From Actinomycetota bacterium (GTDB taxonomy: Bacteria > Actinomycetota > Thermoleophilia > Solirubrobacterales > Solirubrobacteraceae), in contig VAYS01000016.1 in assembly GCA_005883215.1 (NCBI GenBank), forward strand, positions 27,066 through 51,065: a stretch of 24,000 nucleotides of DNA. The letters run 5' to 3'. Under the pieces are notes generated by a model, which saw only the letters and a program-made list of their open reading frames with translations, did not search any database and was not told the DNA's origin. Position numbers and translations under genes: made by a program. The first letter of the stretch is position 1; every line of letters begins with the position of its first letter. Shown one piece after another: positions 7,760-20,478 of this stretch.

Positions 7760-7841
7760 GGCGGGGTACCGAAGCGGTCAAACGGGATCGGCTGTAAACC
7801 GATTGGCTCTGCCTTCGCAGGTTCGAATCCTGCCCCCGCCA
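7760..7841 (+). tRNA. tRNA-Tyr (anticodon GTA), type II with a long variable arm; CCA is not encoded
   Basis: Hand-folded. Acceptor GGCGGGG/CCCCGCC, anticodon stem ATCGG/CCGAT with loop CTGTAAA, long variable arm, and T-arm GGTTCGAATCC. It is near-collinear with the bacterial tRNA-Tyr layout. Confidence 0.9.
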
Positions 7842-8374: not shown

Positions 8375-8824
8375 TTGGAGTCCTCCTCCCCAGTACGCGT
8401 CCTGGTCGTGGCCCACAAGACCGCGGCTACACGTCCGCTGATCGAAGCCGTACGCAAGAGAGCGAAAAAGGGACCGTGCACGTTCACGCTGGTCGTACCC
8501 AAGGCCGCCCACGGGCTCCACAGGGTCGTCGACCCCGAAGATCAGCAGCACGGTGAGGCGAAGGCCGTTCTCGACCAGGCTCTTCCGCTGCTTAGTGAGG
8601 CCGCTGGCTCCAAGGTCGAGGGCCTGATTGGTGCCCACGAGCCCCTGAATGCGATCCAGGACGCGGTCAACATCGAGGGCTTCGACGAGATCATCATCTC
8701 CACCCTTCCGGCCCGTGTCTCGCGCTGGCTGCGGCTAGATCTGCCGCACAAGCTCACCGGGCTTGGCCTCCCGGTGACAACCGTGACCCCGTCTGAGGAG
8801 GAAGTGGAGCAAGCGGCGAGCTGA
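8375..8824 (+). CDS. Hypothetical protein, possibly with a universal-stress-protein-like (adenine nucleotide alpha-hydrolase) fold
   Basis: TTG start at 8375 with AAAGGAG 5 nt upstream. The pattern VRVLVVAH...FTLVVP...FDEIIIST is USP-like in layout only. Confidence 0.55.
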   Translation: MESSSPVRVLVVAHKTAATRPLIEAVRKRAKKGPCTFTLVVPKAAHGLHRVVDPEDQQHGEAKAVLDQALPLLSEAAGSKVEGLIGAHEPLNAIQDAVNIEGFDEIIISTLPARVSRWLRLDLPHKLTGLGLPVTTVTPSEEEVEQAAS

Positions 8825-8844
8825 TCGCCCCAGGGTCGTCGCCG

Positions 8845-9537
8845 GTGACCACCTACGCGCTCGTCCACGGCGCGTGGCACGGCGCCTGGTGCTGGGATCG
8901 GGTCGCCCGGCACCTAAGCGGGGCGGGGCACCGGACGGTGGCCGTTGATCTTCCGTGCGAGGACCTCGCCGCCGGCTGCTCGGCATATGCCGAGATCGTC
9001 CTCACCGACGTGGCGAGCGTCGATGACGACCTTGTGCTGGTCGGCCACTCAGCCGGCGGCCTCACCCTTCCCCTGGTCGCCGCGGCTCGGTCGGTGAAGA
9101 AGCTGGTGTTTGTCGCCGCTCTGCTGCCCCTTCCGGCGCGCCCATTTGCCGAGCAGAACACCGAAGAGCACATCCTGCTCGACGAATATCAAGCCGGGAT
9201 CGAGCTCGATCACCTCGGCCGTCGGCGGTGGTTTGACGCGGAGGTCGCCGGGCGGTTTCTGTACTCCGGCTGCACCCCCGCCGACGCCCGCTGGGCCTTC
9301 TCGCACCTGCGGCCGCAGGCATCGACGATGTACACCGAGCCGAGCCCATTGCGCGCGTGGCCAGAGGTCCCCGTCATCGACATCCGCGGCACCGACGATC
9401 GCCTCATCTCAGCGCAGTGGTCGGCCCGTGCCGTACCTGCCCGGCTCGGTGTCTCCTCCGTCGTGTTCGACGGCGCCGGGCACTCGCTGCTGATCTCTCA
9501 CGCTCGGGAGCTCGCCGACTTCCTGCTTGGTCTGTGA
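8845..9537 (+). CDS. Alpha/beta hydrolase (esterase/methylesterase-like)
   Basis: N-terminal block YALVHGAWHGAWCW and nucleophile elbow GHSAGG. GTG start at 8845. Confidence 0.8.
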   Translation: MTTYALVHGAWHGAWCWDRVARHLSGAGHRTVAVDLPCEDLAAGCSAYAEIVLTDVASVDDDLVLVGHSAGGLTLPLVAAARSVKKLVFVAALLPLPARPFAEQNTEEHILLDEYQAGIELDHLGRRRWFDAEVAGRFLYSGCTPADARWAFSHLRPQASTMYTEPSPLRAWPEVPVIDIRGTDDRLISAQWSARAVPARLGVSSVVFDGAGHSLLISHARELADFLLGL

Positions 9538-9605: not shown

Positions 9606-9678
<73 letters not shown>

Positions 9679-9683
9679 CTCGG

Positions 9684-9934: not shown

Positions 9935-10789
9935 ATGAGGCCCTACGCTGGAGCGGTGGCTGACGAGATCGATCTACGCGCGGCGCTTAACGCGGTGTCA
10001 GACGTGGTGCAGAACCGTCCCCGGCCCCTTCGGGAGTTCGACCAGATCTACATGAAGGCCGGCGACATGGTCATGCAGAGCGAATTCGTCGCCCGCTGGG
10101 CAGACCGCAAGCGGCTCGCCTTCATCGGAGACGGCGACGCCATCAGCGTCTGCACTGCATATCTCCACCACCGGGAGATACTGGGCTACGGGCCCTCGAA
10201 GGTCGTCGTGTACGACTTCGACGAGCGGATCTGCCAGGCGGTCGAGCGCTTCGCCGACAGCGAGCGACTCGAGAATCTCGACGCCGAGCTCTACAACTGC
10301 CTCGATGCGTTCCCAGGTCCGACGAACTTTGACTGCTTCTACACGAACCCGCCGTGGGGTGCGAGCAACGATGGCGAGAGCGTCAACGTCTTCGTGCAGC
10401 GCGGCATGGAGGCCGTCGGCTACCGGGGCGAGGGCATGGCGGTAGTAGCGGACGATCCAGAGCTCGAGTGGCCGAAGCGCGTGCTGGCGAACCTCCAGTC
10501 CTTCGTGCTCTCGCAGGGGTTCTTCGTCCAGAGGATGATGCCCCAGGTGCACAGCTACCACCTTGATGACGCCCCCGACCTGCGGTCTTGCAATGTCCTC
10601 CTCAAAGCCATGCCCGGAAACGAGCACTGCGCCGGCAGGAGCCTCGCGATCGACGACTCGAGCCGGCTCGAGGACTTCTATGGCCGCGGCAGCCATCTTC
10701 GCGTGCGCTACGTGCGCGAGCGGGCGCGGGTGGACTACGGCAAGGCCCACCAGGACGAGTACGAGCTCGAGTTGGTGGAGCAGCCGTGA
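9935..10789 (+). CDS. Class I SAM-dependent transferase of the DUF43/BpsA-like type, carrying an NPPW motif
   Basis: The ordered blocks FDQIYM..., LAFIGDGDAIS, VVVYDFDERI, FDCFYTNPPWG and FVQRGMEAV match my memory of the DUF43/BpsA layout (GDDDLTS, V-DIDER, FD-F-TDPP, F-RG). The stop overlaps the next gene's GTG as GTGA at 10786-10789. Confidence 0.6.
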   Translation: MRPYAGAVADEIDLRAALNAVSDVVQNRPRPLREFDQIYMKAGDMVMQSEFVARWADRKRLAFIGDGDAISVCTAYLHHREILGYGPSKVVVYDFDERICQAVERFADSERLENLDAELYNCLDAFPGPTNFDCFYTNPPWGASNDGESVNVFVQRGMEAVGYRGEGMAVVADDPELEWPKRVLANLQSFVLSQGFFVQRMMPQVHSYHLDDAPDLRSCNVLLKAMPGNEHCAGRSLAIDDSSRLEDFYGRGSHLRVRYVRERARVDYGKAHQDEYELELVEQP

Positions 10790-11352
10790 CCGACATCATT
10801 CACCCCGGCGCCGGCGTCGTCTTTATGAAGGTCGGGACGCACGCGCGCGAGCCGCTCCCCGAGATCATCGCCCGCAAGAGAAAGGAGATCGATGACGCTG
10901 GCTACGCGTTCTGGGGCTACGGCGGCAACACCTGCCATCCGCTCGCGAGCGTCCAACCGTTCGCACGCAACTTCACCCAACGAGACGGCGTCATCTATCT
11001 CGTCATGCAGCCGATGGAGTCAAAGCATTTCGCGATCCCTGATCGCGCGCACGAGTTCTCCGCCGACGGAGTCCGCTGGGAGAAGGTCCCGCCCGCGATC
11101 AACGTCCGCGGCTCGCGTTATGCCCTGGCGATCGACAGTCTCGACGAAGATGAGTTCGAACTGCCGCTCGGCCGGACCCGCGTAGCTGTCGGCAACAGCC
11201 TCGGCCGGCCCGGCGACCGCTACATCAGGGGCAGAGTCGACAAGGCCTGCCTCGAGGTCGTCGATGATGCTGCCGACGACGAGGCATCGTCCTTGCACAT
11301 CGGACTGGTGGCGCGGCTCGTCGAGCCCTACGCCGTGCTACTCAGGACGTAG
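10786..11352 (+). CDS. Uncharacterised protein and paralog of the 13371-14027 product; translationally coupled to the transferase
   Basis: GTG at 10786 lies in frame within track ORF 10588-11352. Shared blocks with the 13371-14027 protein are listed in the findings. It ends with a double stop, TAGTAG. Confidence 0.6.
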   Translation: MTDIIHPGAGVVFMKVGTHAREPLPEIIARKRKEIDDAGYAFWGYGGNTCHPLASVQPFARNFTQRDGVIYLVMQPMESKHFAIPDRAHEFSADGVRWEKVPPAINVRGSRYALAIDSLDEDEFELPLGRTRVAVGNSLGRPGDRYIRGRVDKACLEVVDDAADDEASSLHIGLVARLVEPYAVLLRT

Positions 11353-11355
11353 TAG

Positions 11356-12033
11356 CTAACCCGCAAGAACCCTTGGCGCGGCGGTCCGAAGCGACCCTAC
11401 GTAGCTCTCGAGCCCCACGAGCACTGCGTCCCGCTCCATCCCGCCGCCCGAGTAACACCCGAAGCAGATGCTCGCGGTCTTGTCGACTGCCGGCTCGGCG
11501 CAGACGGCGCGAGCGATCGCCTCGAACTCGCCCGGCTTCTCGTCGAGGACGCGGAGGAAGAGCTGCTCGAGGCAGCGCACTCGTGCGCCGAGCTGTGCAC
11601 AGGTCTCCGAGAGATCGATCAGGATCTCGAGCCCGCGCACCGCGCGTTTGTCACCGGTGTCGAGCAGCGCAATGTCGCGGCCCGCGGTCATCGCCGCAAG
11701 CTGGCTCTCGCCGACGTCCAACTCGAGTCCCGTCAGCTGAGCCAGCCGCTCGAGCTCAGCCGCCGCGCCGACCTCCGCGTTGGTCGGCTCGAGCACCGCT
11801 GCCTCGGAGAGGAATTCCGCGAGCGCCTTGCTGGCGGCAGCTTTGTCGCGCACCCTCGAGCCCCGCGCGATCGCGCTCGCGATCACGAAGCGCGCCGCAC
11901 CGAGAACACCGGCGGCGGGCTCCTCGCCGGCGTGCGGCCAAAACCTCTGTGCGATGCCGTAACAGGCGGCCTTCAGCAGGACATCATTGTCCACAGCGAC
12001 ATCGACTTGCGTGTCACCGTCACGAACGCTCAC
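11356..12033 (-). CDS. PIN-like domain protein and putative nuclease effector
   Basis: Acidic residues sit in a PIN-like arrangement: VAVDNDVLLKA near the N-terminus, DVGESQLAAM, and ALLDTGDKRAV. The GTG start overlaps the upstream stop as GTGA at 12030-12033. The assignment rests on motif layout only. Confidence 0.5.
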   Translation of the reverse strand: MSVRDGDTQVDVAVDNDVLLKAACYGIAQRFWPHAGEEPAAGVLGAARFVIASAIARGSRVRDKAAASKALAEFLSEAAVLEPTNAEVGAAAELERLAQLTGLELDVGESQLAAMTAGRDIALLDTGDKRAVRGLEILIDLSETCAQLGARVRCLEQLFLRVLDEKPGEFEAIARAVCAEPAVDKTASICFGCYSGGGMERDAVLVGLESYVGSLRTAAPRVLAG

Positions 12034-13046
12034 TCGCCGGCCTCGCCGAGGACGGCATCGAGGAAGTCGACTGCGTCGACAGGTTGATCACCGAGCTCGA
12101 GTTGCTGCCTAGCGATCGCGTTTACCTGAGTCCAAACGGGCCGCGCAGCGGCGTAGATGTTGCCGAGCGCCGCGTTCGCCGTCTGCCAATCCCCCGTCGA
12201 GTGCCCATAGGCGAGCGCCAGCGTTCCGGGCTCGATCCGTAGCTCCTGCGCAGACTCAAGCGCGGCGTGGGCCAGTGCACGGCCGTGCGCCCAGCCCGGG
12301 CCGGTCGCCAGGACCGTCGGCTCCGGCGCGCCGGTGAGAAGCTCAAGCGCGAAGGCATCCGCATCCCGCTCTTCCTCGTCACCACCGTTGGCCGCGGGCG
12401 TCTCGCCCTCGAGGTCGACTATTTGCCGGTCCGCTGCGACGTGCTCTAGCGCGATGTGGCCGAGCTCGTGTGCGAGGTAGAAGGCAATCGTCGCCGGATA
12501 TGCGGAGTCCTTGCCCAGCAGCACAGTCGAGCGGCCCCCGACCCTGACGGTCATTGCCGCCATGCGCTTCTGCGGCCAGGGGAAAACGCGCAGGTGAACA
12601 ACAGGCACGGCGAGGGCCCAGCTGAGGGAGAGGAGATCGACAAGCGTTACAAACTGCCCGCCGGAGGCGAGAACGTTCTCGCGCAGGTCGCGCGCCGCCA
12701 CGCCGGCGAGATCGCCCTCGGGCGGCGACGTTGCGCTGACCAGGATCGACGCGATCGCGCGCCCGAATGAGGTGATACCGGCGCGCTCGCGCTCGCTCTC
12801 ACCCGAGAGATGCTTAAAGCGGGCCTCTTCGCGCCATAGGAAGCGCGGCTCGTCGCGGTCATCGAGGAGCGAGTGCGGATCGAGGCCAAGGCGTCGCGCG
12901 ATGCCGAACCTGAGTTCGGCACGCGCCGACGCAGACGCCTCCGCATCCTCGGACCACCAATGCGGCCACGCCGCCGAGATCGCGCGGTCACTCAGGCCGA
13001 GCCCGCGCAGACGAAACCTCAAATCCCGCCCGCTCTCCCCGGTCAC
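12030..13046 (-). CDS. ImmA/IrrE-family (COG2856) zinc metallopeptidase
   Basis: HEXXH motif in FYLAHELGHIALEH and a downstream EERDADAFALELL block. I chose GTG at 13046 because it overlaps the upstream stop as GTGA at 13043-13046. Confidence 0.8.
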   Translation of the reverse strand: MTGESGRDLRFRLRGLGLSDRAISAAWPHWWSEDAEASASARAELRFGIARRLGLDPHSLLDDRDEPRFLWREEARFKHLSGESERERAGITSFGRAIASILVSATSPPEGDLAGVAARDLRENVLASGGQFVTLVDLLSLSWALAVPVVHLRVFPWPQKRMAAMTVRVGGRSTVLLGKDSAYPATIAFYLAHELGHIALEHVAADRQIVDLEGETPAANGGDEEERDADAFALELLTGAPEPTVLATGPGWAHGRALAHAALESAQELRIEPGTLALAYGHSTGDWQTANAALGNIYAAARPVWTQVNAIARQQLELGDQPVDAVDFLDAVLGEAGE

Positions 13047-13363
13047 GGCGCTGTCTCCTTCCCGAGCGTGGGCCACAGCTCGCGCGAGGCGAGAATGAGC
13101 TTCGCCAATGCCCTCGCGTGCTCCTCCGAACCGTCCCACGTCTCGCGGACGGCGTCCAGCACAGGATCCGTGGGGGCGGGCCTGCTAGCTGCATATTGTT
13201 GCATGTAGCTGCAGAGGCGGGCATAGGCCGCCGTGCGCCGGGAGGGCTGACGTTTCAACGCGCGCGAAACCGTTGCCTGGTGCACTCCAGCCCGTTCAGC
13301 AAGTACCTTTTGGCCGATTCCCTCGCGCTCGAGGAGATCGGCGATCAAGTCCCTCAGGTCCAT
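13043..13363 (-). CDS. XRE-family helix-turn-helix transcriptional regulator
   Basis: MDLRDLIADLLEREGIGQKVLAERAGVHQATVSRALKR. I chose ATG at 13363, because the longer track ORF (to 13483) would overlap the divergent gene. Confidence 0.75.
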   Translation of the reverse strand: MDLRDLIADLLEREGIGQKVLAERAGVHQATVSRALKRQPSRRTAAYARLCSYMQQYAASRPAPTDPVLDAVRETWDGSEEHARALAKLILASRELWPTLGKETAP

Positions 13364-13370
13364 CTGGTCT

Positions 13371-14027
13371 ATGCATGATGATGCACGAGTGGCGCCTCGT
13401 GGCGATACCCTGCCGCACTCGTTTTGCTGGACCCGCTTCGGGACGGAGGCCGGCGAGACAATCCAGGCGATACTCGCGCGCAAGGAAGCCGAGCGTCAGG
13501 CGAGCGGCGGCGTGTTCTTCTGGGGCATCGGGAACTCGATCGCGCCCGCAGTCGCGGAGCTAGTGCGGCGCGCCGATGAGCCGGAGGTCCTGTTCAGCCC
13601 GATCAGGAGCCGGCCTCGGCACGTCGACGTTGCGCCCGGGTGCGTCGTGCGATGGACGTTGGCCGAAGCGCTCTCAGGAGAGGCGTTCGAGCTGCCGTCG
13701 CACGCCAGCATCACCAGTCGGTGGGACCCGGCCCGGCCGGGAGTGGCACGCTACGCGCTCGTGTGCTCATCGGCCTTGCCGCTCGAGATCGCCGCCGCGG
13801 AGCGGCTGAACTTCGGCGCACTGCGCAACCTTCGCAGCGGTGCTCCGCTAGGCGCCTCGCAGGTCACCGCCGTCGTACGTCGAGCAGACGCGTGCCGCGG
13901 CGGCAGCGAGTATTCCGTGGCGTTCCGCGCAGCGCTGGTGGCACCGTACTTCGTTCGCTTGCGCCGGCCGATGCCGCTGGACGATCACGTCCACTCCCCT
14001 CGATCCCTTCGCAAACATGGCAGCTAA
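13371..14027 (+). CDS. Uncharacterised protein and paralog of the 10786-11352 product
   Basis: 218-aa ORF that is collinear with the 10786-11352 product over its full length. Its ATG lies only 7 nt from the divergent XRE start. Confidence 0.6.
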   Translation: MHDDARVAPRGDTLPHSFCWTRFGTEAGETIQAILARKEAERQASGGVFFWGIGNSIAPAVAELVRRADEPEVLFSPIRSRPRHVDVAPGCVVRWTLAEALSGEAFELPSHASITSRWDPARPGVARYALVCSSALPLEIAAAERLNFGALRNLRSGAPLGASQVTAVVRRADACRGGSEYSVAFRAALVAPYFVRLRRPMPLDDHVHSPRSLRKHGS

Positions 14028-14749: not shown

Positions 14750-15370
14750 ATGTCCGAACACGACAACGACGGCCATTACTGGGAGCCTGCTCCCGAAGAT
14801 GATCTGCGCCAAGGCGACCTGCTGTTCAACGTTCCCATCGCCTTGATGCCCCAGCATCCGCGCTTTGTGCTCGGCGAAGGCGAGGAGGTGCACACCGAGA
14901 CGTACGACGACTATCCGGAGAATGCGCCCTCGTCGGAGATCGTTGTCGAGGCCGCCTTCGGGGCTTTGGGGATGGTGGTGACGCCCACGTGCCACATCTC
15001 CGAGGCCGAGAAGGATGAGGACATCGTCGCTGTGGTGCCGGTGCAGCCTCTGAACCTCGTCATCCCGGATCTCAACCAGGCACGCAGCATTCGGGCCGGC
15101 AAGAGCGTGCCACTACACCTGTTCCCGCTGCCGCGCACCGAACTCGGCGAGGGGATCCTTGCGTTCGACGGCGCTGCGCTACTTGACCGACCGGCGTCCA
15201 TGCTCAAGGACAACCTGCGCGACTACCGCCGCCTCGGCCTGTACGTCGAGGCTCGCATCGCACTCCGCAAGGCTATGGCGCGCTTTTGGGCGCGGGGGAG
15301 CGCGGATGAGAGCATCGAGAGCTCGATGCGGCCACAAATCGAGAAGCGGCCACTGGAGGACCTGGAATAG
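14750..15370 (+). CDS. Hypothetical protein with no recognised family
   Basis: 206-aa ORF with G/C-rich third positions, lying 60 nt downstream of the HTH gene. It has an acidic N-terminus and the blocks LRQGDLLFNVP and GMVVTPTCHIS. Confidence 0.55.
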   Translation: MSEHDNDGHYWEPAPEDDLRQGDLLFNVPIALMPQHPRFVLGEGEEVHTETYDDYPENAPSSEIVVEAAFGALGMVVTPTCHISEAEKDEDIVAVVPVQPLNLVIPDLNQARSIRAGKSVPLHLFPLPRTELGEGILAFDGAALLDRPASMLKDNLRDYRRLGLYVEARIALRKAMARFWARGSADESIESSMRPQIEKRPLEDLE

Positions 15371-15841: not shown

Positions 15842-16948
15842 TCAACGGGCGGCCCGCCGTGGCACGCTGGAGGCACGTTGAGCGCGGGCGCGGATGATGG
15901 CTTCTTCGGCGCTGACCCGGTCGGCCGGGTCGAACTCATCGAAGACACCGGCGTAGGTGTTCAGGCACATCTGGGGGGAGTGGCCGAGCTGGCGGGCGAC
16001 CTCGATGACGGTCTGGCCCTCGTGGATGAGGAGCGTGGCGAAGCTGCCGCGCAGGTCACGCGGCCGGACGCCCTTGGGCAGGCCGGTAGCCTCGGCCGTG
16101 GGCTTGAAGACCCGCCGGTGCCAGTTCTTCCAGTCGTGGCTGGTCCACACGCCCTGTTCGGCTGGGAACACGAGGCCCTTGGATGCCCGCAGACCGGACG
16201 CCATGCGCCAGTCGCGCAGGTCGTCGGCCAGGGGCTTGAGCAGTCGCACCGTCCGCTGGCGCCCGCCGAGCTTGGACGCTCGGATGAGCAGCGTGCGCTC
16301 GCGCATCTGCGGCCAACAGAGGGTGACCGCCTCTGACTGGGGGCGAAGACCAGCGTAGGCGAGCACACTGATCAGCGTGGCGTCGCGTAGGCGGCCGTGG
16401 ACGAGCAGGTGGCTGCGCATCGCCTCGACCTGGACGGGCGGGATGACGATCGGCTCGCGGGTGCGGCGCTGGGATGGCTTTCGCACCAGCCGCACCGGGT
16501 TGGCGGGGATCTCTTCGTCGCGGGCGGCGCGCTGAAGGATGGCCTGGAGCACAGTCAGGGCCTTGACAATCGTCGGGCCTCGGTCGCCGTCGCGGACGAG
16601 CGCGGCGATGAAGTCCTCGACCACCGACGGCTTGATCTCCCGCAGCTGCAGATCGCCGAGGCGCGGACGGATGCGCAGGTCGAGCTGGGTGGCGTACACC
16701 GCAAGCGTGCCCTCGGAGAGCCGGGTCTCGGCGTAGCTCTCCCACCATTCGGTCGCGTAGTCGCCGAGGCGCTGGGTGCCGCGGGGGGCGAGCTCGTCGC
16801 CCAGAGCGATGCGGCGCTTGATCTCGCCGTCGAAGCGGTTGGCGTCCTGGGCACGATCGAACGAGCGGGCGCGGGAGCGCCCGCCCTGGCGCCAGCGGAC
16901 CTTGTAGCGGGTGCTGCCGTCGGGCCGCTGGCTGCGTTCGACGCTCAT
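15842..16948 (-). CDS. int: Tyrosine recombinase / phage-type integrase
   Basis: N-terminal SAM-like domain (YKVRWRQGGR...) and catalytic-domain blocks (YAGLRPQSEA, LRGSFATLLIHEG, LGHSPQMCLNTYAGV with the terminal Tyr). ATG at 16948 overlaps the upstream stop as ATGA. Confidence 0.9.
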   Translation of the reverse strand: MSVERSQRPDGSTRYKVRWRQGGRSRARSFDRAQDANRFDGEIKRRIALGDELAPRGTQRLGDYATEWWESYAETRLSEGTLAVYATQLDLRIRPRLGDLQLREIKPSVVEDFIAALVRDGDRGPTIVKALTVLQAILQRAARDEEIPANPVRLVRKPSQRRTREPIVIPPVQVEAMRSHLLVHGRLRDATLISVLAYAGLRPQSEAVTLCWPQMRERTLLIRASKLGGRQRTVRLLKPLADDLRDWRMASGLRASKGLVFPAEQGVWTSHDWKNWHRRVFKPTAEATGLPKGVRPRDLRGSFATLLIHEGQTVIEVARQLGHSPQMCLNTYAGVFDEFDPADRVSAEEAIIRARAQRASSVPRRAAR

Positions 16949-17259
16949 GGCACCCTTGCCTCGCGCCGTCGGCGGACGCGCTCGCGGAAGCTGTAGTCGG
17001 GCTTTGGCCGCTCGGGGACGGTGGGGTTGCCCCGGGGGATGAGGTCGATGGGCGACGTCGGCCTGACGCGCGTGCGCTCGAGCCACTCCCTCACGCCGGA
17101 TTTGGTGACCCGCAGCCTGCCGCAGGGCTTGAACGCCTCGAGCTCGCCGCGGGCGATCGCCCGGTAGATCGCATCCCGCGCCAGGCCGACCATCTCCCCC
17201 ACCTGATCAACGGTGAACAGCGGCTCGATCGGGGCCTCGCTGCTCTTCGCCCGCACCAC
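16945..17259 (-). CDS. Excisionase-like helix-turn-helix protein and candidate recombination directionality factor
   Basis: LFTVDQVGEMVGLARDAIYRAIARGELEAFKPCGRLRVTKSGVREWLE. I chose GTG at 17259. The ORF stays open up to ATG 17538, which overlaps the M48 gene stop as ATGA, so the longer form cannot be excluded. Confidence 0.6.
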   Translation of the reverse strand: MVRAKSSEAPIEPLFTVDQVGEMVGLARDAIYRAIARGELEAFKPCGRLRVTKSGVREWLERTRVRPTSPIDLIPRGNPTVPERPKPDYSFRERVRRRREARVP

Positions 17260-17534
17260 GCGCAGCCGGCCGCCAGTGCACGGGCGGCGAGCGGTTCGCC
17301 CATCGGGCTCGGCGGGGCTTGTGGCGGATTGGGGCAACGTGGCGATGGCGTTGATGCTCGGTCTGTTCTGCCGTTTGCGGGGTCGGCCGCCGGCCGACCC
17401 TAAGTGTCCCCAGGCGCCGGGGGCGGGTTCTGTCAAGGCCAGCCGCAGGCTGGCCGTACCCCGCCCGTGGGCGGGGTTGACGGGTTCCGCCCCCGGTGCC
17501 ATAGGGCTCGGATGAACGAGCGGCGGACGGAGGC

Positions 17535-18401
17535 TCATGAACCTTCCCCGGCGCTGTAGGCGATGAGACGGTCGATGCGAAGCTCGGTGGGCGGGTGGCT
17601 AACGGCGCGCAGCCAGGCGAACGGGATCGGCTGATCGAAGGGAAGGCCCTCGTTCTCAAGTGACTGGGCCAAGTCCTCTGCGTAGCCGAGGCGAGCGGCG
17701 AACAGGTCGGCCTGGTACTCGCGGTGGCGCAAGTAGGCGCCCCAGATCGGCCGAACGAGGAACAGAGCGAGCTCGCCGGTGAGCAGCATCACCAGGAACG
17801 CCGACGCGAACCCCAGCAGGCCGGCTCCGCGGTCGGGCCATGTGACGCGGAGCGGGATGACCATTCGATCGAGGGCGACGATCAGGCTGCCGTCGATGCT
17901 GTTGAGGTGGCCGAGCTCGTGGGCGAGCGTGGCCTCGAGCCAGCGGCTCTCGATCGCCCCGCGGTGGAGGATCAGCGTTCGGCCGCGAACCCGGGCATTG
18001 ACCTCGGGCGAGTCGAGCACCCACCAGCTCCCCGGCCGGCGGATGCCGGGGCGGCTCTGGATCACGGTGTCCAGAGCATCTTCGACGGCGATGCGCTCGC
18101 GCTCGGATGGCCGGCGCGCACCGGTGCTCTGAACGAACCACCAGCCGCTTCCGATCGCGTACGGGAGCGCCAGGACCGACCAGGCCAGTGGTGCGAACCA
18201 CGCGACCAGGCCCCAAGTGCCGGCGCCGGGGCTGGCGTGGTGGCCGCTGAGCAGCAGGACGATCGCGGCGAGCAGGTAGACGAACAGCCCGCGGGCGAAG
18301 CCCAATGCGACCTGGAGCGCGAGCGTGAGGACGTAGAGCACCACCCAGCCCAGCGGCCGCTCCTTGGGCACGACGGAGGCGATCGGCTGCGCGGCGCTCA
18401 A
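17535..18401 (-). CDS. Membrane-bound M48-family (HtpX-like) zinc metallopeptidase
   Basis: N-terminal TM helices, HEXXH in LAHELGHL, and the downstream blocks REYQAD and HPPTELRIDRL that are typical of M48. The TTG start overlaps the upstream stop as TTGA. Confidence 0.75.
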   Translation of the reverse strand: MSAAQPIASVVPKERPLGWVVLYVLTLALQVALGFARGLFVYLLAAIVLLLSGHHASPGAGTWGLVAWFAPLAWSVLALPYAIGSGWWFVQSTGARRPSERERIAVEDALDTVIQSRPGIRRPGSWWVLDSPEVNARVRGRTLILHRGAIESRWLEATLAHELGHLNSIDGSLIVALDRMVIPLRVTWPDRGAGLLGFASAFLVMLLTGELALFLVRPIWGAYLRHREYQADLFAARLGYAEDLAQSLENEGLPFDQPIPFAWLRAVSHPPTELRIDRLIAYSAGEGS

Positions 18402-19825
18402 AACGGAAGCCCTCCTCCCCGCTCCGACCTACACCGCCCGGCCGGGACATCGTCGCCACGCTCGGATGACGTGGGCGCCTCGCGCGCGTGCGCGCGCGAA
18501 CCCGTAGGAGTGGCCGCCGAGTACTGAGGCACCGCGTCCTCGAGGGGGGCCGAGACCGTGGGCGCCTGGGCGACACGGACCTTCATCGCGCGCCCCTGGG
18601 CGATCACGAACGCCTCGCCGCGATCCAGGCCGCGGACCTCGTTGGGGTCGACCTTGAAGTGATGGGCCCGCCAGGCGGTCCCGTTGCCGGTGGGCCCAGC
18701 GTCGGCGATCTCGTGGGTGCGCTCAAGGGCCTGGCGGGTACCGGCGAGCGCCACCACGGCGTCAGGGGTGTTGACCCGGTGACAGACGACCGTCTCGACG
18801 CTGGCCAGGATCCGCGCCGCCTCCTCGGCCTCGCCCATCCCGGCTGCAACCTGGGGGGCGAGGATCAGAGCCGTGTTGAAGGCGCGGGCCTGCTCGATCC
18901 GGGCGGCCATCGACCCCGACGAGGCCAGTGCGCTGAACTCGTCGACAATCAGCACGCAGAAGCGCTCGCGGGCTTTACGAGCGGTGAAGTAGTGGGCGAA
19001 GTCCTCAAACAGGAAGCGCGCCAGGCCCCGAGCCTCCTCGCGCAGCGCCAAGGTGTCGAGCAGCAGATAAGCGGCCCGGCTGTCGTCCCAGCCCCAGCCG
19101 CCGTCTAGCCGACCGTCGAGCTGCCCGAAGAACGCCTCATAGCGCAGGCGCACGCCGCGGACCTGTTCGGCGGTCAGCGCCACGGCCGCGCTTGCGGGAC
19201 CGTGAACGGAGCGCAGGTGGCGCAGCTCCATCCGCGACAACGCCTCCGCCGAGCAGCGCGGGGGCCCGTCCGGATGCCGGCAGACCAGGGTGAGCACGGC
19301 CTTGGCCACATCCCGGTACCAGGCCGCCGGACCCTCCGCGGCGTAGTCGATGACCTCGGTGAGCCGCGCCTGGACATCGCCCGCTCCACCGCGCCAACCG
19401 TCGAACGGCTCGTCCGGGAACACCCGTGCTGTGCGGCCCGCACACTTCATCAGCCCCACGAAGCGCGCCGCGGTCCGGCGATCACCTTTCCCGTCCAAGA
19501 AGAACACGGGCGCGTCGTTGACCTGGGCCAGGCAATAGGCGATCCGCAACGCCGTCTCGGTCTTGCCGGCGCCGGTGGCCCCCATCACCAGCAGGTGGTG
19601 GGTCATGCGCCGCGGTGAGAGCACGACCAGACCGCCGTGGCAGGGAAGTGCCGGCTCGCCTCGCAGCCGGCGTCCCAGGACGATGCCCGCTTCCTCGCCG
19701 TCATACGCCCTCAGCGGCACGTCTACCTCCGGCCGCGGAAGGACATTCGGGCGACCGCGCCACCCCCGCGCGCGCCAGGGGAAAATCCCGCGTACTGCCG
19801 GCCTTGACGAGGCCACGGCGCTCAC
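18398..19825 (-). CDS. Type IV coupling-protein-like ATPase (TraD/TraG/VirD4 family)
   Basis: Walker A LLVMGATGAGKTE and Walker B CVLIVDEFSAL, in a layout like T4CP/TraM-recognition-domain proteins. GTG at 19825 overlaps the upstream stop as GTGA at 19822-19825. Confidence 0.7.
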   Translation of the reverse strand: MSAVASSRPAVRGIFPWRARGWRGRPNVLPRPEVDVPLRAYDGEEAGIVLGRRLRGEPALPCHGGLVVLSPRRMTHHLLVMGATGAGKTETALRIAYCLAQVNDAPVFFLDGKGDRRTAARFVGLMKCAGRTARVFPDEPFDGWRGGAGDVQARLTEVIDYAAEGPAAWYRDVAKAVLTLVCRHPDGPPRCSAEALSRMELRHLRSVHGPASAAVALTAEQVRGVRLRYEAFFGQLDGRLDGGWGWDDSRAAYLLLDTLALREEARGLARFLFEDFAHYFTARKARERFCVLIVDEFSALASSGSMAARIEQARAFNTALILAPQVAAGMGEAEEAARILASVETVVCHRVNTPDAVVALAGTRQALERTHEIADAGPTGNGTAWRAHHFKVDPNEVRGLDRGEAFVIAQGRAMKVRVAQAPTVSAPLEDAVPQYSAATPTGSRAHAREAPTSSERGDDVPAGRCRSERGGGLPF

Positions 19826-20478
19826 CGTGCGCCTCCCAGCGGCGGGAGCTCGCGGAGGTGGAGCTTCGGCCACTCGCCGCCGGCGGCCAGGCGCTCGAGC
19901 TGGCGGCGCGCCGCCGGCGCGCAGAAGTAGACGAGCGCATCGAAGCGGTCGGAGAGGTCATCGAGGATCTGGATCATGCGCGGCTGGGACTTCTGCGTGA
20001 GCTCGACCTCGACCGCGTGGCGCTGGCCGTCGAGCGCGATCACCGCGTCGGGCAGGTGCTCTCCCCGACGCGCCGTCCGGCCGAGCTCCCGCTCGCACAC
20101 CCACTCGGCCGCGGGTGCGAGCCGATCGATGTGAAGGCGCACCTCGTTGACCGCGGCGACGTGCGCCAGCAGCCCGACCCGCGGTCGCCAGACCCGAAAC
20201 CCGGTGCCGGCCAGGCGCTGCCCCGCCGGCGTCAGCCACACCCACGCGGGATGATCCGCGAGCACCGGCCTGGCCTCGATCAGGCCCGCCTCACGCAGCC
20301 GCCGGACCAGGCGCTGCGTGCTGCGCCGATGATGCCCGAGAAGAAGATCAAGGTGATCCAGCCGCGCGCCGTACTGCTCCGAGACCCAGGCCAGCGCGCC
20401 TAGATCTGATGCGAGGGGCATCTGCCCCGCCTCGTGGCGAGGGCCAGATACGGCTGCGCGTGCGGCGAGCGCTGACAT
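19822..20478 (-). CDS. Replication-relaxation family protein (N-terminal wHTH plus PD-(D/E)xK-like core)
   Basis: STQRLVRRLREAGLIEAR...VWLTPAG, followed by HLPDAVIALDG...AVEVELTQKS. This matches the Replic_Relax family layout. Confidence 0.6.
   Translation of the reverse strand: MSALAARAAVSGPRHEAGQMPLASDLGALAWVSEQYGARLDHLDLLLGHHRRSTQRLVRRLREAGLIEARPVLADHPAWVWLTPAGQRLAGTGFRVWRPRVGLLAHVAAVNEVRLHIDRLAPAAEWVCERELGRTARRGEHLPDAVIALDGQRHAVEVELTQKSQPRMIQILDDLSDRFDALVYFCAPAARRQLERLAAGGEWPKLHLRELPPLGGAR

Follow-up and report, generated by a model that had tools for sequence, protein, structure and literature searches.

A 24,000-nucleotide stretch of DNA from an Actinomycetota bacterium (contig VAYS01000016.1, positions 27,066 to 51,065; hereafter, the window) carries a gene cassette in which two related proteins of an uncharacterised family, here called paralogs A and B, belong to different gene modules. 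The gene for A overlaps that of a putative amino-alkyl transferase (MT), and the gene for B stands back-to-back with an operon encoding an Xre-type helix-turn-helix (HTH) protein, an ImmA-like metalloprotease, and a PIN-domain nuclease. A and B were confirmed to be real, distant paralogs. Our preferred reading, a tentative one to which we give somewhat less than an even chance, is that A and B are ancient paralogs and that each has its fixed place in one of two modules of a horizontally mobile conflict system that serves defence or addiction. The cassette genes lie in high-GC DNA downstream of a tRNA-Thr gene and are the following:

9935..10789, + strand: MT, a BpsA_C/DUF43-type amino-alkyl (methyl or aminopropyl) transferase of 284 aa, assigned by PF01861 and similarity to BpsA
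10786..11352, + strand: paralog A, 188 aa, of an uncharacterised family, overlapping the MT gene; the open reading frame (ORF) is present at these coordinates
11356..12033, - strand: PIN-domain (VapC-like) nuclease of 225 aa with a Cys-rich C-terminal extension, assigned by AlphaFold2 and Foldseek
12030..13046, - strand: ImmA/IrrE/CapP-like, Lit-like zincin metalloprotease of 338 aa with an HELGH motif, assigned by PHROG and PADLOC matches
13043..13363, - strand: Xre-type HTH protein of 106 aa, first gene of the HTH-ImmA-PIN operon, assigned by HTH_31 and HTH_3 matches below cut-off
13371..14027, + strand: paralog B, 218 aa, of the fold family of A; the ORF is present at these coordinates

The initial annotation had aligned A and B by eye and proposed that they are collinear, full-length paralogs flanking an Xre-ImmA-PIN operon. 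This proposal was borne out. BLASTP aligned the two proteins over 197 columns with 24% identity (E=6e-6) and recovered all three motif pairs that had been listed, FMKVGTHA.../FCWTRFGTEA... with FWGxG, SRYALAI/ARYALVC, and LVEPYAVLLR/LVAPYFVRLR. Comparison of the A family with the B family by hhalign, using alignments of 30 sequences each, gave a probability of 96.2% (E=2.7e-9, 157 aligned columns), and a hidden Markov model (HMM) built from 110 diverse A relatives matched B at 5e-10. The Smith-Waterman score of the A-B pair was 84, compared to 31 +/- 4.7 in composition-preserving shuffles (n=2000, maximum 51; z=11), and A scored between 26 and 50 against every other protein of the window. Composition bias of high-GC DNA is excluded by the shuffle scores together with these low scores. 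The identity of just 24% and the abundance of Ala, Arg, and Gly in both proteins could be taken to mean that the similarity arose by chance or from the base composition of a high-GC genome, but this explanation is refuted by the hhalign, HMM, and shuffle results, as well as by the conservation of the shared invariant positions within both families, and we give it virtually no weight.

The residues common to A and B (in A numbering) were K/R15, G17-T18, E22, R30-K31, E34, W43-G44-x-G46, and W98, to which R111-Y112-A113-L114 and P181-Y182 can be added. A further set was found in A only. H19 (in H-A-x-E, after strand 1), C50-H51-P52 (after strand 2), and D152-K153-x-C155 are kept even in the most distant relatives, S79 (after strand 3) is present across the family, and H81 is restricted to the close cassette family. 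The corresponding conserved loop motifs of A read HAxE, WGYGGxxCHP, MxS, and DKxC. At these positions, the hhalign alignment showed that B has Glu for H19, a 7-residue deletion of the CHP loop, Pro for H81, and a gap for DKxC. An AlphaFold2 model of A, calculated from a 110-sequence alignment, reached a predicted local distance difference test (pLDDT) value of 95.6 and a predicted template modelling (pTM) score of 0.91. It displays a strand-helix-strand-helix-strand unit, followed by a strand-rich half and a long C-terminal hairpin. The H19, CHP, and S79 groups are located in loops at the C-terminal ends of strands 1 to 3, and loops at this end of the strands are the usual position of active sites in alpha/beta folds. 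The conserved His/Cys/Ser loops suggest that A is an enzyme or a metal-binding subunit, whereas B appears to keep the scaffold and a basic/aromatic pocket but not the chemistry.

The family to which both proteins belong is large. An exhaustive HMMER search with the A profile over 1.84 billion representatives yielded 470 clusters at 50% identity. With clustering at 90% identity, A had 2404 relatives and B had 1189. All of the relatives of A and B bear the source name 'hypothetical protein' and have no Pfam domains. The initial annotation was unable to recognise the family, and our searches led to the same outcome. A, B, and 110 superfamily members had zero matches in Pfam, NCBIfam, PHROGs, and PADLOC. 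Three profiles used to search PDB sequences gave no match, and Foldseek comparison of the A model with PDB and BFVD returned nothing significant and no match at E<0.3 (best PDB match, E=0.31; template modelling [TM] score, <=0.29). The A/B family is large and uncharacterised and, judging from the model of A, without a recognisable fold.

The top PDB matches of A in Foldseek were repeatedly YTH domains, all of them non-significant (E=0.31-1.3; probability, <=0.15; TM score, 0.21-0.29). The strand-helix-strand-helix-strand order, with a Lys in strand 1 and Trp residues after strand 2 and beyond, resembles the layout of YTH domains, which like EVE domains are PUA-like readers of modified bases, whereas the Cys/His loops of A are absent from the reader domains. 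Membership in the YTH family was not supported: alignment of either family with the YTH domain of YTHDC1 by hhalign gave probabilities of 0.2% and 0.1% for the two profiles, the YTHDC1 sequence having been verified as identical to PDB 4r3h, and none of the 110 family members had a YTH, EVE, or ASCH match in Pfam. Because the Foldseek matches were non-significant and the hhalign values did not exceed 0.2%, the A/B family was not placed in the YTH/PUA-like group. Two other candidate identities of A that arose from sequence inspection, a pyruvoyl-type S-adenosylmethionine decarboxylase (from the invariant Ser79) and a deaminase-like zinc enzyme (from HAxE ... CHP), received no Foldseek support. 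Longer relatives (P0328 and others) were considered as possible domain fusions, but their extra regions are devoid of Pfam domains. A 380-aa protein encoded at positions 812-1954 of locus L085 begins with an A-family domain, and its C-terminal half, about 200 aa long, has no Pfam match. Its gene lies close to that of a SNIPE/T5orf172 nuclease, and the protein could prove to be an informative fusion.

MT matched Pfam family PF01861 at 4.8e-18, with 65.7 bits against a gathering cut-off of 27. Among PDB entries, it matched BpsA (5xnc) at 2.6e-9, and the alignment started at BpsA residue 127 and covered the catalytic half only. MT and BpsA (DUF43, PF01861) have homologous catalytic Rossmann domains with equivalent GDxD and (T)(D/N)PP motifs: the GDGD and NPPW motifs of MT correspond to the BpsA motifs in such a way that GDDD pairs with GDGD and TDPP with TNPPW. 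However, the N-terminal 125-residue domain of BpsA is absent from MT, which does not have the full BpsA architecture, and MT has NPPW, as do N6-adenine or glutamine methyltransferases, where BpsA has DPP. The two also differ in their setting, as the expression of MT is always fused to that of A in a mobile conflict locus and not in polyamine metabolism. Other matches of MT were a weak one to METTL5 in the PDB and generic methyltransferase similarity only in PADLOC (mad2 at 2.8e-6, partial). An MT homolog is named bis-aminopropyl spermidine synthase family protein by PGAP.

That A is translationally coupled to the transferase, as had been noted initially, is evident from the gene junction. The GTG start codon of A at 10786 overlaps the TGA stop codon of MT (10787-10789) as GTGA, and an MT-A overlap of 4 to 11 nt recurs in every homologous locus with called genes. 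MT has no domain for target recognition, and its gene shows translational coupling to that of A throughout; the two proteins probably form a complex. Trm112, which associates with METTL5, HemK2, or Trm11, is a small obligatory partner of methyltransferases. The MT-A pair may be viewed as analogous, in that a (D/N)PP-motif amino-methyltransferase without a target domain is co-expressed with a small partner; A and Trm112 have no sequence or fold similarity, and the comparison is an analogy only.

For the opposite strand, the starts of the ImmA and HTH genes follow those called on a metagenomic contig of identical sequence. The corrected starts, 13046 (not 13139) for ImmA and 13363 (not 13483) for HTH, are most likely the right ones and make the ImmA gene overlap its two neighbours, HTH and PIN, by 4 nt each, the PIN gene being in a co-transcribed position downstream of ImmA. 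The identity of the three products agrees with the initial annotation. The HTH protein matched HTH_31 (5.5e-5) and HTH_3, both below cut-off. The zincin with its HELGH motif matched PHROG 18577 at 5e-49 and, in PADLOC, capP at 3.4e-8, as well as RmrA and Lit; the Pfam M78 match (1e-3) was below cut-off, homologs had weak Peptidase_U49 matches, and PGAP names a homolog ImmA/IrrE family metallo-endopeptidase. The PIN protein had no match in Pfam or PADLOC. Its AlphaFold2 model (pLDDT, 95.6) matched PAE2754 and VapC in the PDB with a Foldseek probability of 1.0 and TM scores of up to 0.72, and residues D15, D17, E87, E95, E109, and D128 were invariant.

Xre-COG2856(ImmA/IrrE)-PIN gene sets have been predicted to form a three-component toxin-antitoxin-like module (Makarova 2009, PMC2701414; Matelska 2017, PMC5499597), and Xre repressors are known to be cleaved by ImmA-type proteases (PMC2701414, PMC5499597). 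The window operon has the same composition and order, namely, an Xre HTH protein, an HExxH zincin, and a PIN protein encoded by genes with 4-nt overlaps on a mobile element. With the HExxH zincin, the PIN fold, and the Xre gene all present, this part of the cassette is of a kind already known from predictions. It differs from the described modules in three respects. The PIN and zincin subfamilies do not reach Pfam thresholds, MT-A and, in the clade of the window, also B accompany the module without exception, and B replaces Xre as the first operon gene in many loci. The zincin scores best against the models of CapP, which together with CapH regulates cyclic oligonucleotide-based antiphage signalling systems (CBASS), and of RmrA from RosmerTA. 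Moreover, just as capH-capP diverge from the CBASS operon, the Xre and protease genes diverge from B. However, the score of the window zincin is weak (3.4e-8), the protein is about 340 aa long with extra domains, and MT, A, B, and PIN are unrelated to CBASS or Rosmer toxins.

The conservation of the cassette was assessed by a scan for A homologs in one genome per species. Among 185,579 species, 188 contained a close A homolog. The best 80 of these 188 loci were analysed, and 60 had enough flanking DNA to be considered complete. The best 80 included loci from Actinomycetota, Acidobacteriota, Chloroflexota, Alpha-, Gamma-, and Deltaproteobacteria, Planctomycetota, and Verrucomicrobiota. MT, A, PIN, ImmA, and B were each found in all 60 complete loci, across at least six phyla with Pseudomonadota among them, the HTH gene was detectable in 32, and a P-loop kinase gene was found in 23. 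The median identity to the window protein decreased in the order MT (68%), A (60%), ImmA (52%), B (47%), HTH (42%), and PIN (41%). On Pseudomonas koreensis plasmid p1, the block of B and HTH-ImmA-PIN is inverted relative to MT-A, and in 21 of the 60 loci, mostly from Alphaproteobacteria, B heads a B-ImmA-PIN operon with stop/start overlap and no detectable Xre gene. The cassette was also found on plasmids and in a prophage accessory slot. Its neighbours, which include type I restriction-modification (R-M), AAA_15, PvuII, VapBC, Zeta toxin, a ThiF cluster, and Tn7-like genes, are those commonly seen in defence islands and on mobile elements. As a whole, the cassette of five to seven genes combines strict conservation with horizontal mobility.

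The kinase is absent from the window. In many cassettes, a protein of about 195 aa, it is encoded directly upstream of MT or downstream of A/B (for example, L088 5559-6143 and L089 7593-8198). It resembles archaeal-type adenylate kinases, with matches to NF003122 (4.9e-12, below cut-off) and to Pfam AAA_17/18.

A metagenome scan seeded with distant A relatives added 80 more loci, in which the overlapping MT-A pair was present wherever the contig allowed. Four architectures were distinguished. The first, found in 28 complete loci, is that of the window with B. The second is a co-directional MT-A-ImmA-PIN operon without B or Xre (six loci). The third, in at least eight loci, combines MT, A, and often the kinase with a short CapP-like protease of about 185 aa (capP 7e-31; motif HELGHH) and a protein of about 135 aa for which two transmembrane helices are predicted, without PIN or B. 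It was seen in loci L106, L109, L110, L120, L122, L137, L142, and L163, and two copies of A occur in L120. The fourth is MT-A alone, with or without the kinase. As MT-A is kept in all four, it represents the conserved core. The protease-plus-effector output is exchangeable, being either PIN or the two-transmembrane protein with the CapP-like protease, as in many defence systems. B is an add-on of one large clade, although it is also able to function by itself. Solitary A relatives also exist in prophage or other contexts.

The mechanism that we infer, in each of its biochemical steps, builds on what was directly observed: homology, strict co-occurrence, gene coupling, the PIN fold, the swap of output modules, and the location on a mobile element. 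Module 1 would comprise the overlapping MT-A pair, often with the archaeal-type adenylate-kinase-like gene, and the probable MT-A complex would alkylate an amino group, with A as the obligatory partner of MT that contributes an enzyme-like or metal-binding site. From the NPPW motif one would expect adenine-N6-type or similar chemistry, from the BpsA homology the transfer of a methyl or aminopropyl group, and from the frequent adenylate-kinase-like partner an adenine nucleotide or nucleic acid as the target. Module 1 may thereby make or maintain an amino-group modification, probably on an adenine-type nucleotide or nucleic acid. Module 2 would consist of the toxin-antitoxin-like Xre-ImmA-PIN genes and B. 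B, putatively without catalytic activity, could read the ligand or partner of A or serve as a decoy for it, and in this way couple the state of module 1, its substrate, or an attack on module 1 to the zincin protease. Removal of the Xre repressor/antitoxin by the protease would then release the PIN nuclease and result in abortive infection or post-segregational killing. The role of PIN would fall to a membrane effector in sister clades. A sensor/decoy relationship, one of the arrangements suggested by the initial annotation, is compatible with the data, as A retains enzyme-like loops that are lost in B and B is wired to ImmA/PIN. A toxin/immunity pair, also suggested there, received no support, because A is always tied to the transferase and A and B occur without each other in other clades.

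Several observations weigh against this model. A divergent pair of Xre-type HTH and B genes adjoins the pqqB-E operon on a Burkholderia cenocepacia replicon (L090 5569-6600), and pairs with the same HTH family lie by the pqq operon in four Burkholderia species (B. cenocepacia, B. arboris, B. stagnalis, and B. multivorans); MT, A, ImmA, and PIN are all absent from them. On Rhizobium phaseoli plasmid pRphaN671a (L091 4680-6693), B forms an operon with DUF4258 and a 329-aa protein, within a defence island that contains a PD-(D/E)XK nuclease, TcmP/DUF5131, a type IIG R-M system, and a GIY-YIG nuclease. The occurrence of B without MT, A, ImmA, and PIN means that B can act alone and need not read a product of A, and the MT-A-ImmA-PIN operons described above do without B. 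The idea of B as a reader may be questioned as well, as it rests on conserved Trp/Lys/Arg residues and on the non-significant YTH-like Foldseek matches, with hhalign against YTH at 0.2%. The substrate (nucleotide, RNA, DNA, polyamine, or protein) is a guess. In PADLOC-DB v2, no model matches A, B, PIN, or specifically MT, and among the cassette proteins only the protease matched models of named systems (capP, RmrA, and Lit); no phage-defence phenotype is on record for MT, A, B, or PIN. Searches of 50,697 phage records with A and ImmA by tblastn gave no match, and A had only 5 plasmid matches. B was found on only 2 IMG/VR contigs. In the B. cenocepacia case, the stretch is without annotated features in the (incomplete) gene table of the collection.

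The junction between the HTH and B genes bears on a different explanation. Their start codons point away from each other with 7 bp between them (13363 for HTH; window 13361-13385), in line with the back-to-back arrangement recognised initially, and in most homologous loci they are likewise divergent and 7 to 50 bp apart. This would suit a regulon like CapH/CapP or ImmR/ImmA, in which Xre represses the overlapping divergent promoters of B and of its own operon, the zincin cleaves Xre upon stress or infection, and B is the induced effector or enzyme, with A as a constitutive, transferase-bound version of the activity of B. The stand-alone HTH-B pair of Burkholderia, the matches of the proteases to CapP models (3.4e-8, and 7e-31 for the short variant), and the cleavage of Xre known for ImmA-type proteases fit as well. 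However, such a regulon is difficult to reconcile with the 21 of 60 loci in which B comes first in a B-ImmA-PIN operon with no detectable Xre, and the loss in B of the enzyme-like loops of A fits poorly with an effector enzyme. In addition, a search for promoters and operators around the HTH/B junction found no consensus match, including none to the sigma-70 consensus. Overall, we consider a regulon of this kind possible but improbable. Most B homologs begin with ATGCAT (Met-His) even where the remaining N-terminus differs. This conserved start may represent a DNA signal, such as an overlapping promoter/operator, or may reflect leaderless mRNAs.

A second alternative places the actual defence or modification function in MT-A, with or without the kinase, and regards B as a dead mimic of A that is bound by phage inhibitors and thereby triggers ImmA and PIN as back-up suicide. 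MT-A occurs elsewhere alone or with other outputs, so that B with ImmA-PIN resembles an added layer; B has evolved faster than A, with a median identity of 47% compared to 60%, and has kept its scaffold while the catalytic loops are gone. Against this, no phage inhibitor is known, B is present in genomes without A, and protection by MT-A alone is without evidence. We regard such a guard or decoy as clearly unlikely.

It is slightly less likely still that the two halves of the cassette merely travel together. In that case, MT-A would be a metabolic or housekeeping pair, for example for polyamine or nucleotide tailoring, and Xre-ImmA-PIN-B would be an unrelated addiction module that stabilises the element. 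Xre-COG2856-PIN modules are common on mobile elements, MT-A occurs alone, and the PGAP name of MT refers to bis-aminopropyl spermidine synthases. However, co-occurrence in 60 of 60 loci across phyla has survived inversions and changes in operon structure, the paralogy of A and B joins both halves by descent, and MT is without the BpsA N-terminal domain. The junction between A and PIN also argues against independence. The A stop codon (TAG, 11350-11352) and the convergent PIN stop codon (CTA, 11356-11358) are 3 bp apart, reading TAGTAGCTA, and in homologs the two genes overlap by 4 to 14 nt, which leaves no independent terminators. Without room for a terminator, the two transcripts must overlap as antisense RNAs, and this overlap could be relevant to the control of PIN.

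Returning to the reading of A and B as paralogs anchored in two modules of one conflict system, literature searches on DUF43/BpsA with defence or phage, and on YTH with PIN and methyltransferase, retrieved no description of the cassette or of its two paralogs, and neither did the four family libraries. New are the core of MT and A, the presence of B as a paralog of A, and the apparent absence of any known fold, and the cassette looks like an undescribed defence or addiction system. A bolder version would be that it belongs to a previously unrecognised class of immune or addiction systems, which would work by amino-alkylating an adenine-type nucleotide or nucleic acid. A new fold would then be used twice, as A in a catalytic or targeting role and as B in the role of reader or decoy, and B would arm an effector (PIN or a membrane protein) that is gated by the protease; we rate this version as rather unlikely. 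If the preferred reading is true, the cassette would be a widespread multi-gene conflict system, present in at least 188 sequenced species and in thousands of metagenomic clusters, with core enzymes never before linked to defence, namely, a BpsA-type transferase and a family without a recognisable fold. A large family of hypothetical proteins would gain a function, and the long-predicted, little-tested Xre-ImmA-PIN module would gain a concrete upstream partner. It would also provide a natural case in which an enzyme and its catalytically degenerate paralog serve as effector and sensor/decoy in one locus.

The surroundings of the cassette in the window include the following features:

9606..9679, + strand: tRNA-Thr (GGT), detected by ARAGORN, directly upstream of the cassette
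14750-15370, + strand: ORF of 206 aa between an excisionase-like gene and the integrase gene
15842-17086: tyrosine integrase, preceded by the excisionase-like gene and the 206-aa ORF

The region from 15842 to 20478 encodes the tyrosine integrase, a second HTH_17 protein, an M48 peptidase, a TrwB/HerA-like ATPase, and a Replic_Relax protein. The integrase, excisionase-like, TrwB-like, and Replic_Relax genes downstream of the cassette indicate that an integrative mobilisable element adjoins the tRNA-Thr gene and that the locus is its cargo. The tRNA-Thr gene is the probable integration site of this element. No repeat of the tRNA-Thr 3' end and no attL/attR pair was found inside the window, and the far end of the element therefore probably lies outside it. 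The 206-aa ORF had no match in Pfam, NCBIfam, PHROGs, or PADLOC; it is outside the conserved cassette and was found elsewhere only on the identical contig L003. Upstream of the island, a tRNA-Tyr gene (7760-7841) is followed by an ORF of 149 aa and an alpha/beta-hydrolase gene (Abhydrolase_6) within 8375-9537, and these are ordinary chromosomal genes that flank the island.

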